Shown here: positions 6,869-8,355 of the stretch, piece by piece
Position numbering within the stretch: the stretch's first letter is position 1
Layout: every line of letters starts with the position of its first letter
Virus record (IMG/VR): IMGVR_UViG_3300026078_000023
Span: 1 to 64,000 of that record
Reading direction: 5' to 3' (one strand)
DNA from: a virus
DNA: 64,000 nt
The notes under the pieces: generated by a model
Database searches by the model: none
What the model saw: the letters and a program-made list of their open reading frames with translations, nothing else
Told to the model about the DNA's origin: nothing
Program-made: the position numbers and the translations under genes

Positions 6869-7063
6869 TCAGCGCGGGGCGAGCGCCAGGACCGCGCCGA
6901 CGACGGCCGCGAGCCCCATTGCGGCGGCCGCCAGCGCCACCAGGAGGTCGGCGCGGGCGCGCCGGCGGGCGGCGCACTCGCGCTCCTTGCGCTCCGACCA
7001 GGAGCCGCGCCTGGCGCGCCGGCGGCTCCGCATCTTCCGGGGCCACGTCACCGGGGTGGTCAC
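6869..7063 (-). CDS. small basic protein with a C-terminal TM helix
   Basis: GTG overlaps the upstream TGA; LLVALAAAAMGLAAVVGAVLAL. Confidence 0.45.
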   Translation of the reverse strand: MTTPVTWPRKMRSRRRARRGSWSERKERECAARRRARADLLVALAAAAMGLAAVVGAVLALAPR

Positions 7064-8355
7064 GGCCTCCACCCCAGGAAGACGCCCTGCAGGCGCCTCT
7101 CGACCTCGCCCCAGTGCGCGCACCGCAGCTGGGCGGCGAGCCCCAGGTGCTTGCCCCCGAGGCCGTGGTCGGCGACGTAGGCGTGCTCGCGGCAGTCCAG
7201 GACCAGGACCGGCCAGACCGGCGGGAGGAGGTCGTCGTCGAGCGCCAGGGTCACCAGGCGCGGGGCGCCGCCGTCGCTGTCCACGGCCGCCACCGCCCAC
7301 GCCTGCGCGGCGAGTGCCGCTTGGCGGAGCTCCGCCAGCCACGCGGCCAGGCCCCCGCGGGCCTCGGTCGCCAGCTGGGTGACCGCCAGCCCAGGGACCT
7401 GGCCCGGCGGGGCCAGGTTGGCGAAGTGCAGGCCGTGCAGGCGGGCGGCGCCGAGCGCGGCCGGAAGCCGGCGGGCGGCGGCCAGGCGGGCGGCCGAGCC
7501 GGTGCGCTCGCCGAGGTAGTCGGAGACCGTCTCCGCGATCTGCTGGTACGGCTCGCGCCGGCCGGGGGCGGTCACCCTCTGGGGGCCGTAGAAGGCGCCG
7601 CGGTCCACCACCAGGCGGGCGACCAGCTCCAGCTTGCGCTGGGCGCCGGGCCCCTGGGTGGCCGGGTCCTCGCCTGAGAGCCAGAAGGCGAACGTCTCGG
7701 CCCAGTCCTCGTCGGCGTGCTTCTGCGCGTAGTGGGCCAGCTGGTTCGGGCCCGGGCGCCCCAGGTAGGTGACGAAGTCGGGGGCGGCGCCGGCGTCCGG
7801 CTCGTAGGCGTCGCGGTAGGGGGCGGAGAAGTCACCGAAGGCCTCGCGCCACCCGGGGAGCGCCCAGCCCTCGTAGGCGTAGAGCAGGGCGTGGCCGTAC
7901 TCGTGGCGCAGGACGCGCAGGACCTCCTCCTCCGTGAGGAGGTAGCGGCGCTCGGCGACCAGGGCCCAGGTCTCGGCGGACCCCAGGTACCAGGGGAGGT
8001 TGACGCTGGTGGCGCGGTCGGCGGTCCAGAAGTCGTCCGAACCCAGGTAGAAGCCGGGCCAGAACGTGAGGCCGCGGGAGGTGGTCTCGCCGCGCAGGCG
8101 GGCGAGGACGGCGGCCAGGCGCCCGCGCTCGAGGGAGAGCGGCAGGTCGCAGATGCGGGCGTCGAGGGTGCGGCGCAGGTCGCCGGGGGCGAGCGCCATG
8201 GCGGCGGCCGGGGGGGCGCCGGCGTCGACGGCCAGCTGCTGCTGGAGCGCCCCCAGCTCGCCGAGGCCGGCGGCGTGGAGCGCCAGGTGCTGGTCGAGGG
8301 CGCGGTCGGTGAACCCGGGGAGGCGGCCGCGCAGCGCGCTGGGGTCGAAGTTCAT
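7060..8355 (-). CDS. Fe/Mn superoxide dismutase-like protein with an inserted HExxH zinc-metallopeptidase (Peptidase_Mx-like) domain
   Basis: SOD-like N-term LPGFTDRALDQHLALH; central RVLRHEYGHA...YAQKHADEDWAETFAFWL; SOD C-term LHGLHFANL, PVLVLDCREHAY, HWGEVERRL; ATGA overlap with queE. Confidence 0.75.
   Translation of the reverse strand: MNFDPSALRGRLPGFTDRALDQHLALHAAGLGELGALQQQLAVDAGAPPAAAMALAPGDLRRTLDARICDLPLSLERGRLAAVLARLRGETTSRGLTFWPGFYLGSDDFWTADRATSVNLPWYLGSAETWALVAERRYLLTEEEVLRVLRHEYGHALLYAYEGWALPGWREAFGDFSAPYRDAYEPDAGAAPDFVTYLGRPGPNQLAHYAQKHADEDWAETFAFWLSGEDPATQGPGAQRKLELVARLVVDRGAFYGPQRVTAPGRREPYQQIAETVSDYLGERTGSAARLAAARRLPAALGAARLHGLHFANLAPPGQVPGLAVTQLATEARGGLAAWLAELRQAALAAQAWAVAAVDSDGGAPRLVTLALDDDLLPPVWPVLVLDCREHAYVADHGLGGKHLGLAAQLRCAHWGEVERRLQGVFLGWRP

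Follow-up and report, generated by a model that had tools for sequence, protein, structure and literature searches.

A phage protein family with a predicted zinc peptidase domain nested in a superoxide dismutase-like fold

What is the role of a phage gene that seems to interrupt an iron/manganese superoxide dismutase (Fe/Mn SOD) with a complete zinc peptidase and that is directly coupled to queE? The question is raised by a 64,000-nucleotide stretch of viral DNA (positions 1 to 64,000 of IMG/VR record IMGVR_UViG_3300026078_000023, hereafter the window), in which an initial annotation, made from the letters alone, had described such a chimeric gene at 7060-8355. The coordinates are correct, but the gene lies on the minus strand, in whose translation all peptides quoted for it are present. 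The viral genome comprises 93,289 bp with a GC content of about 71% and is rated 100% complete, and according to a composition-based list of open reading frames (ORFs) the minus strand carries almost every convincing gene of the window. The described overlap of the chimera's ATG with the queE stop codon was confirmed as ATGA. The GC content at third codon positions (GC3) is 0.94-1.00 in each 150-nt block of the ORF but drops to 0.64 in the stretch between the ATG and a GTG further upstream at 8466, a stretch that falls within queE. Due to this pattern along the frame, we regard the ATG as the start and see no frameshift or join within the ORF. The longer ORF from GTG 8466 was rejected because of its lower GC3, its location within queE and the fact that homologues begin at the ATG. 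An artificial fusion by misassembly or frameshift was rejected because GC3 is uniform and the identical architecture occurs on many independent contigs.

Both flanks of the encoded protein resemble Fe/Mn SOD. The Pfam model Sod_Fe_C (PF02777) matches aa 333-420 (E 2.5e-4, 21.5 bits versus a cut-off of 20.9), and relatives reach much stronger scores, with E down to about 1e-17. A profile of 38 full-length relatives matches the Aquifex FeSOD 1coj with E 1.7e-32, and a second match of the same profile, weak but collinear, equates the N-terminal helix with SOD helix 1. The whole protein was modelled with AlphaFold2 from the alignment of these 38 relatives, with a predicted local distance difference test score (pLDDT) of 92.4 and a predicted template modelling score (pTM) of 0.71. 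Whether the flanks would model as a SOD, a point raised with the original proposal, is answered by the structural search of this model: 1coj ranks first with Z 22.8 and a root-mean-square deviation of 2.5 Å over 189 of 211 residues. Since the match runs over model residues 2..430, a nearly full SOD is put together in the model from the first 45 and the last 146 residues.

The insertion point can be located with the help of three uninterrupted SOD-like relatives (P0167, P0169 and P0170; 205-222 aa), which share 43-45% identity with the SOD part of members of the chimera family. BLASTP of one member of the chimera family (P0026) against P0167 gives two collinear segments, in which residues 6-40 correspond to 19-54 (56% identity, E 8e-9) and residues 290-432 to 65-208 (45% identity, E 6e-36). 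Thus, approximately 250 residues replace a hairpin loop of about ten. By both alignment and model, the protein is a Fe/Mn SOD fold with a zinc-protease domain cleanly inserted in its helical-hairpin loop, as the initial annotation had proposed, and the arrangement is recurrent. We found no description of an enzyme domain nested in the Fe/Mn SOD hairpin in our literature searches, which agrees with the earlier remark that no such protein had been described. A separate protein of 350 aa (P0171) carries an uninterrupted SOD-like domain of the chimera clade followed by a C-terminal Peptidase_C39-like cysteine peptidase domain; judged by its domain matches, SOD-like and peptidase domains are joined in at least one further arrangement. 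Searches for viral loci encoding the stand-alone SOD-like P0167 or the SOD-plus-C39 protein P0171 returned none.

The inserted domain is matched by Pfam Peptidase_Mx (PF15887) at aa 146-227 (E 9.1e-7, 29 bits versus a cut-off of 27), and relatives match this model as well. Folded alone, the insert (aa 46-285) reaches pLDDT 92.4 and pTM 0.91, and among the structural matches listed 50 of 50 are zincin-type proteins or zincin-like domains. The best of them are the catalytic domain of anthrax lethal factor (1yqy, Z 8.5) and PPEP-3 (9g0j, Z 7.9), and further ones include the Peptidase_Mx structure 4l7a (Z 7.1) and PPEP-2 (6fpc, Z 7.0). Comparison of the insert with chains of the Protein Data Bank by sequence, with the single sequence or with a profile, gave nothing meaningful. 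All 38 relatives retain H151, E152, H155, Y209, Q211, K212, H213, E216 and E220, so that the motif order is HExxH, later a Tyr, six residues and then Glu-x-x-Ala-Glu. We take this spacing to be the same as that of H686, E687, H690, Y728 and E735 in lethal factor and of H142, E143, H146, Y178 and E185 in PPEP-1. From what is known of family M34, E216 is presumably the third zinc ligand and Y209 presumably the Tyr that stabilizes the transition state. The combination of HExxH with a downstream Glu on the next helix points to the gluzincin arrangement, in which these residues would be the ligands.

The nested architecture is not a peculiarity of a single contig, a possibility that had been considered at the outset. 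A word-indexed protein search recovered 15 proteins, 14 of which cover 92-100% of the query. An exhaustive search of representative sequences yielded about 30 clusters (50% identity) that span both SOD flanks together with the insert, in addition to hundreds of stand-alone peptidases that match aa 60-285 only. IMG/VR contains 14 viral loci with full-length chimeras on contigs of up to 93 kb, and the insertion point is the same throughout. The family seems to be confined to viruses: all 57 members of the chimera's cluster in the ESM Atlas are viral (100%), and in species-representative cellular genomes we found only stand-alone peptidases of 360-385 aa. A tblastn search of 50,697 GenBank phage records revealed no relative in a cultured phage. 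In a FastTree phylogeny of the peptidase domain, which is a quick and unrooted tree, all 38 chimera inserts form one group with a support of 91, and their sister consists of 10 cellular stand-alone proteins, mostly from metagenome-assembled genomes (MAGs) of Myxococcota, with a joint support of 96. The tree fits a single insertion event. Together with the high GC content, it hints at Myxococcota as hosts of the phages carrying the chimera, which we regard as only a lead.

These closest cellular relatives (loci L020-L029, from Myxococcota MAGs) are free-standing proteins of 360-385 aa whose flanking genes are mostly encoded on the other strand. They possess an extra C-terminal tail of about 120 residues, which appears helical according to its sequence profile and has no family assignment.

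Is the SOD part still an enzyme? The four candidate metal ligands named in the initial annotation (H, H, D, H) are present as H23, H307, D387 and H391 and are kept in 35, 36, 34 and 36 of the 38 relatives, respectively. The equivalent of the gateway Tyr34 is G30, with Tyr in 15 of the 38 relatives; the equivalent of His30 is L26, a position at which 34 of 38 members have Leu; and the water-coordinating position is occupied by D373, with His in 17 of 38. Because the gateway Tyr and the water-coordinating His are missing here, efficient SOD activity of this protein appears doubtful. The replacement of the conserved W of DxWEHAY by R had also been pointed out. R389 is indeed found there, but the residue does not seem diagnostic, as the position is variable in the family (W in 14, H in 10, R in 4 and F in 4 of 38) and is a Y in Aquifex FeSOD. 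The C-terminal water-coordinating His is typical of tetrameric SodFM3/4 enzymes, and loss of the last His of HxxxHH is a mark of SodFM4 (Sendra et al., PMC10172142). Since the last His of HxxxHH is absent and the C-terminal His occurs in those 17 relatives, the scaffold would be SodFM4-like. Compared with the two nearest relatives, the insert is 70-84% identical and the SOD parts 45-63%; over the whole family, SOD part and insert are about equally conserved. The faster divergence of the SOD part in this lineage makes the constraint on it look relaxed or changed there.

Prediction of a homodimer gave a score of 0.63 compared with 0.00 for the best control, with a pLDDT of at least 79 for the partner chain. 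Among proteins solved as pairs, 20 of 30 attain this mark, and among those solved as single chains 1 of 23 does. Three runs share at least 63% of the contacts, and all confident contacts fall within the SOD part (41-42 and 290-382), none in the insert. As SOD dimers have been solved, the predicted pairing may mirror the likeness to known structures.

The relatives include longer proteins of 560-1054 aa, in which the chimera is a constant N-terminal module followed by at least five unrelated kinds of C-terminal extension. Among them are DRAT-like ADP-ribosyltransferase (ART) domains, PI3/4-kinase-like (SCO1664-like) domains, a Cys-rich tail, a domain of about 150 aa and others without a family. 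The Cys-rich tail, common to P0007, P0008 and P0010, measures 60-90 aa (GGSSCxxC ... YCCD), matches no family and may form a small zinc-binding domain, as its cysteine pattern suggests. The genes downstream of the chimera show no homology to the C-terminal extensions of the long relatives. A combination of a lethal-factor-like zincin hub with ART and kinase domains, encoded in phages with portal/terminase packaging, is characteristic of polyvalent proteins (Iyer et al. 2017, PMC5512222), whose zincins have been proposed to process polypeptides or to hit host targets after delivery. Superoxide dismutase is not mentioned in the text of that paper, and our literature searches on SOD in polyvalent proteins returned nothing relevant.

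The initial annotation had suggested that the protein may protect the Fe-S cluster of QueE, tailor the 7-deazaguanine or be a redox-gated protease; the first two of these proposals depend on a conserved association with the que/dpdA genes. In the window, the chimera is the last gene of the order ParB-like, DpdA, QueC, FolE, QueD, QueE, chimera, and this order is kept only in the nearest relative (L001/G006, 61% identity). QueC was searched on whole records with the Pfam model, for which controls were positive in 13 of 14 genomes, and DpdA was searched with the DpdA protein of the window; both searches recovered the positive control G006. DpdA and QueC are absent from three chimera-bearing genomes that are each 100% complete (G001, G002, G005), from G007 (86% complete) and from several partial chimera-bearing records. 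DpdA and queC co-occur with the chimera only in the target genome (G000) and in G006, so the link to que and dpdA is limited to these two phages, and a tie to QueE and 7-deazaguanine is not supported. Homology of the chimera to known Dpd or Que enzymes was not found, Pfam and NCBIfam giving only SOD and Peptidase_Mx. Nor is it related to the known tailoring enzymes of phages, DpdL, DpdM and DpdN, of which DpdL is a QueD paralogue (PMC10516641). For this reason, identity with DpdL, the 7-carboxy-7-deazaguanine (CDG) decarboxylase, was rejected.

What the loci have in common lies on the other side of the gene. In 15 of 15 loci the chimera is followed by a terminase-nuclease-like gene of 250-260 aa, small ORFs and the portal gene, and in several of them (L003, L006) the reading frames overlap or abut. 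In several relatives the region contains a ParB-domain DNA methyltransferase instead of the que/dpdA genes, and the chimera adjoins the terminase-like gene. Because the order on the packaging side is constant and the modification genes are swapped, we consider the DNA-modification cassette as variable and the chimera as a core gene. It should therefore not be counted as a member of the 7-deazaguanine pathway merely due to its coupling to queE. The features discussed are listed in Table 1.

Table 1 Positions of the chimeric gene, its predicted parts and neighbouring genes (window coordinates unless a genome is given)
Feature	Position	Strand	Remark
Whole gene, 431-aa SOD-fold protein with nested zincin peptidase (predicted)	7060..8355	minus	stop codon 7060-7062
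ATGA overlap of chimera start codon and queE stop codon	8352..8355	minus	ATG at 8355; TGA 8352-8354
aa 1-45, SOD helix 1, first arm of N-terminal hairpin	8221..8355	minus	candidate ligand H23 at 8287-8289; G30 (Tyr34-equivalent) at 8266-8268
aa 46-285, inserted putative zincin metallopeptidase domain with linkers (Pfam Peptidase_Mx, lethal-factor/PPEP-like)	7501..8220	minus	
HEYGH (H151, E152, H155), putative zinc-binding/catalytic motif	7891..7905	minus	invariant in 38/38 relatives
YAQKHADEDWAE (Y209...E216...E220), invariant Tyr and Glu-x-x-Ala-Glu segment	7696..7731	minus	
aa 286-431, SOD helix 2 and C-terminal alpha/beta domain	7063..7500	minus	
Candidate ligand H307	7435-7437	minus	
Candidate ligands D387 and H391 within DCREH	7183-7197	minus	
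D373 at water-coordinating position	7237-7239	minus	not His/Gln
QueE	8352-9053	minus	upstream neighbour, outside module
QueD	9029-9409	minus	upstream neighbour, outside module
FolE	9448-10110	minus	upstream neighbour, outside module
QueC	10107-10775	minus	upstream neighbour, outside module
DpdA-like transglycosylase	11252-12091	minus	upstream neighbour, outside module
ParB-like protein, 241 aa	12088-12813	minus	upstream neighbour, outside module
Terminase-large-subunit nuclease-like protein, 260 aa (cluster c1)	2204..2986	minus	downstream partner in 15/15 loci
Portal gene, past record ends in target genome	G000 91402-93132		

On balance, we lean towards the view that the chimera is an effector-type zinc endopeptidase of the phage, carried on a self-associating, metal-binding SOD-like scaffold, and that its adjacency to queE is an accident of cassette insertion. 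The analysis demonstrates how the protein is built, that this architecture recurs and is confined to viruses, which residues are conserved, how the neighbouring genes are ordered and that the que genes do not consistently accompany it. Proteolysis, a function as effector and the use of the SOD part as a scaffold are what we infer beyond this. The chimera would be a cytoplasmic phage protein with two metal sites. A SodFM4-like Fe/Mn SOD fold, probably pairing with itself, would serve as the scaffold, and a lethal-factor/PPEP-like zinc endopeptidase with an apparently complete set of catalytic residues would have been inserted once in the N-terminal hairpin loop of this scaffold. The peptidase would be the working part and, by analogy, might cleave host proteins or process phage effector polypeptides during infection. 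The SOD moiety could contribute oligomerisation and a retained metal site, the second-sphere residues for efficient dismutation having apparently been lost in this protein. The position after queE would reflect a lineage-specific placement of the dpdA-que cassette beside a core gene. Several points weigh against this view. No PHROG or PADLOC-type family names the protein, and 10 long relatives are likewise without a PHROG; literature searches revealed no characterised member of Peptidase_Mx or of the chimera family. The structural Z-scores of the insert are middling (7-8.5), though in agreement with the motifs. Beyond the SOD-like part and the zincin, the protein carries no further effector domain; the Pfam model MPTase-PolyVal is not among its Pfam matches, and in the models the likeness to the zincins of polyvalent proteins is at the level of the fold only. 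That the chimera is packaged into virions would be pure inference from the position of its gene. Finally, all four SOD ligands are retained and 17 of 38 relatives also keep the water-coordinating His, which argues for a role of the SOD site beyond that of a scaffold, at least in some members.

This last point is also the strength of a bifunctional antioxidant, in which an active Fe/Mn SOD would clear superoxide, for example to shield Fe-S/radical-SAM enzymes such as QueE, and the peptidase would be an accessory. In favour of it are the four ligands, which the target has and 34-36 of 38 relatives keep, the strong Sod_Fe_C matches of many relatives, the second-sphere His and Tyr of 17 and 15 of them, respectively, and the translational coupling to queE in the target genome; moreover, SodFM4 representatives have been assayed for activity and metal preference by Sendra et al. 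(PMC10172142). However, the target has G30 and D373, and His30 is replaced by Leu in 34 of the 38 proteins. The SOD parts of the target lineage have changed more quickly than the insert; conservation is stricter at the peptidase site than at the SOD site; and three complete related phages have the chimera without QueC or DpdA. We therefore judge the antioxidant rather unlikely. A protease gated by metal or redox state, in which the state of the SOD site would be relayed through the helices of H23 and H307 to the zincin and proteolysis would be confined to the host cytoplasm, is distinctly unlikely in our opinion. The insert is placed precisely between the helices that bear the two ligands, and both metal sites are conserved together over about 38 divergent members; nested domain insertions commonly couple host and guest domains. 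However, no part of the helices is more distant from the metal than the tip of the hairpin, and the second-sphere loss in the target suggests decay rather than refinement of redox chemistry. In an extended form of this thought, to which we give a low probability, the chimera would be an allosteric device: a SOD-type Fe/Mn site would sense metal or superoxide upon entry into the host and switch on the zinc protease, which in the long relatives would then release or activate the ART-like and kinase-like cargo. If true, this would represent a platform for phage effectors that is licensed by metal or redox state, of a kind not yet described. An equally low probability is given to a morphogenetic protease or virion assembly factor that acts on head or packaging proteins. 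It is favoured by the neighbourhood of the terminase-nuclease-like and portal genes, which is kept in 15 of 15 loci, with overlapping or abutting frames in several. To our knowledge, however, the proteases that mature proheads are of the serine type and their genes follow the portal, whereas the chimera contains a putative zincin and its gene precedes the terminase, and the variable ART-like and kinase-like C-terminal domains of the relatives fit better to host-directed effectors. Very improbable is a dedicated accessory of the 7-deazaguanine (DpdA/preQ0) pathway, be it a base-tailoring hydrolase or a protease that matures pathway enzymes. It could account for the position as last gene of the string from ParB-like to QueE, for the ATGA overlap and for the same order in L001, but not for the chimera-bearing genomes without DpdA and QueC (G001, G002, G005, G007), nor for those relatives in which the chimera abuts the terminase-like gene and a ParB-methyltransferase is found nearby instead; the unrelatedness of DpdL, DpdM and DpdN (PMC10516641) also stands against it.

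Compared with known systems, the effector-type peptidase on a SOD-like scaffold combines familiar elements. With SODs of the SodFM3/SodFM4 type, such as Aquifex pyrophilus FeSOD (1coj), the chimera shares the two-domain fold and the four metal ligands. Unlike them, it belongs to a virus-only family, has an enzyme domain of 240 residues in place of the hairpin loop and has a one-residue deletion between the first ligand and the helix-1 Tyr-Val; neither the gateway Tyr nor the water-coordinating His/Gln is found in the target. The uninterrupted relatives P0167, P0169 and P0170, which are annotated by JGI as ‘Fe-Mn family superoxide dismutase’, share the motifs HxxLYxGYV, LRRREPxxYN, LHELYF and DCWEHAY with members of the chimera family but have a short hairpin loop and no peptidase. 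The stand-alone cellular Peptidase_Mx proteins of Myxococcota MAGs have the HExxH core and YAQKHxDEDxAETF in common with the insert (44-47% identity, aa 47-281), but they are free-standing and not nested in another fold. Zincins of the M34 type (lethal factor, PPEP-1/2/3) are the best structural likeness of the insert, with no match to the solved chains at the sequence level; secretion signals or toxin delivery domains are not apparent in the chimera. Like polyvalent proteins, the chimera family has a lethal-factor-like zincin as hub with ART-like and kinase-like fusions, which occur in the relatives, and its genes are found in portal/terminase phages close to the packaging genes. Non-catalytic subunits with the SOD fold in mitoribosomes (6hiv, 6yw5, 5mrc) and in the chloroplast PEP-PAP polymerase (8w9z) rank among the top matches of the model with Z 17.5-19.5 and show that the Fe/Mn SOD fold has repeatedly been reused as a structural module. 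In contrast to the chimera, these subunits are eukaryotic and none of them hosts a nested enzyme domain. Both parts of the chimera thus come from known superfamilies, the SodFM fold and the zincins, and their nested combination is new as far as our literature searches reach. As a virus-restricted and deeply conserved module it adds a building block to the polyvalent-like repertoire of phage effectors, provides a natural example of a domain insertion into a classic metalloenzyme scaffold and gives a handle on Peptidase_Mx, a widespread family.

Some further features of the neighbourhood are worth recording. The match of the terminase-like gene to the large-terminase profile phrog_38 is confined to the nuclease part (positions 488-659 of 760). 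From the terminase-like gene, the portal of the target phage is reached by crossing the ends of its linear record, which is thus probably circularly permuted. Directly downstream of the chimera, a 300-aa ORF (5900-6802, minus strand) contains the internal repeat DDGMLADALERL / DPDGMLADAYERL; neither Pfam nor PHROG matches it, the 14 related loci contain no homologue of it, and the slot downstream of the chimera is occupied by a different gene in almost every relative. An ORF of 292 aa (4589-5467, minus strand), with a sub-threshold match to a PRAI TIM barrel (E 0.0044), is unique to the target among the compared loci. Between the DpdA-like gene and QueC lies an ORF of 136 aa (10772-11182, minus strand) for which clustering found no counterpart in L001.

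The ParB-like gene (12088-12813) overlaps the start of the DpdA-like gene by 4 bases, and related phages carry the homologous ParB-like domain as a fusion with an N6/N4 DNA methyltransferase (L003, 12362-13993). From these arrangements, the ParB-like module seems to be a common front end for different DNA-modification enzymes. The pair of ParB-like and DpdA-like genes is reminiscent of what we take to be the bacterial DpdA/DpdB pair.

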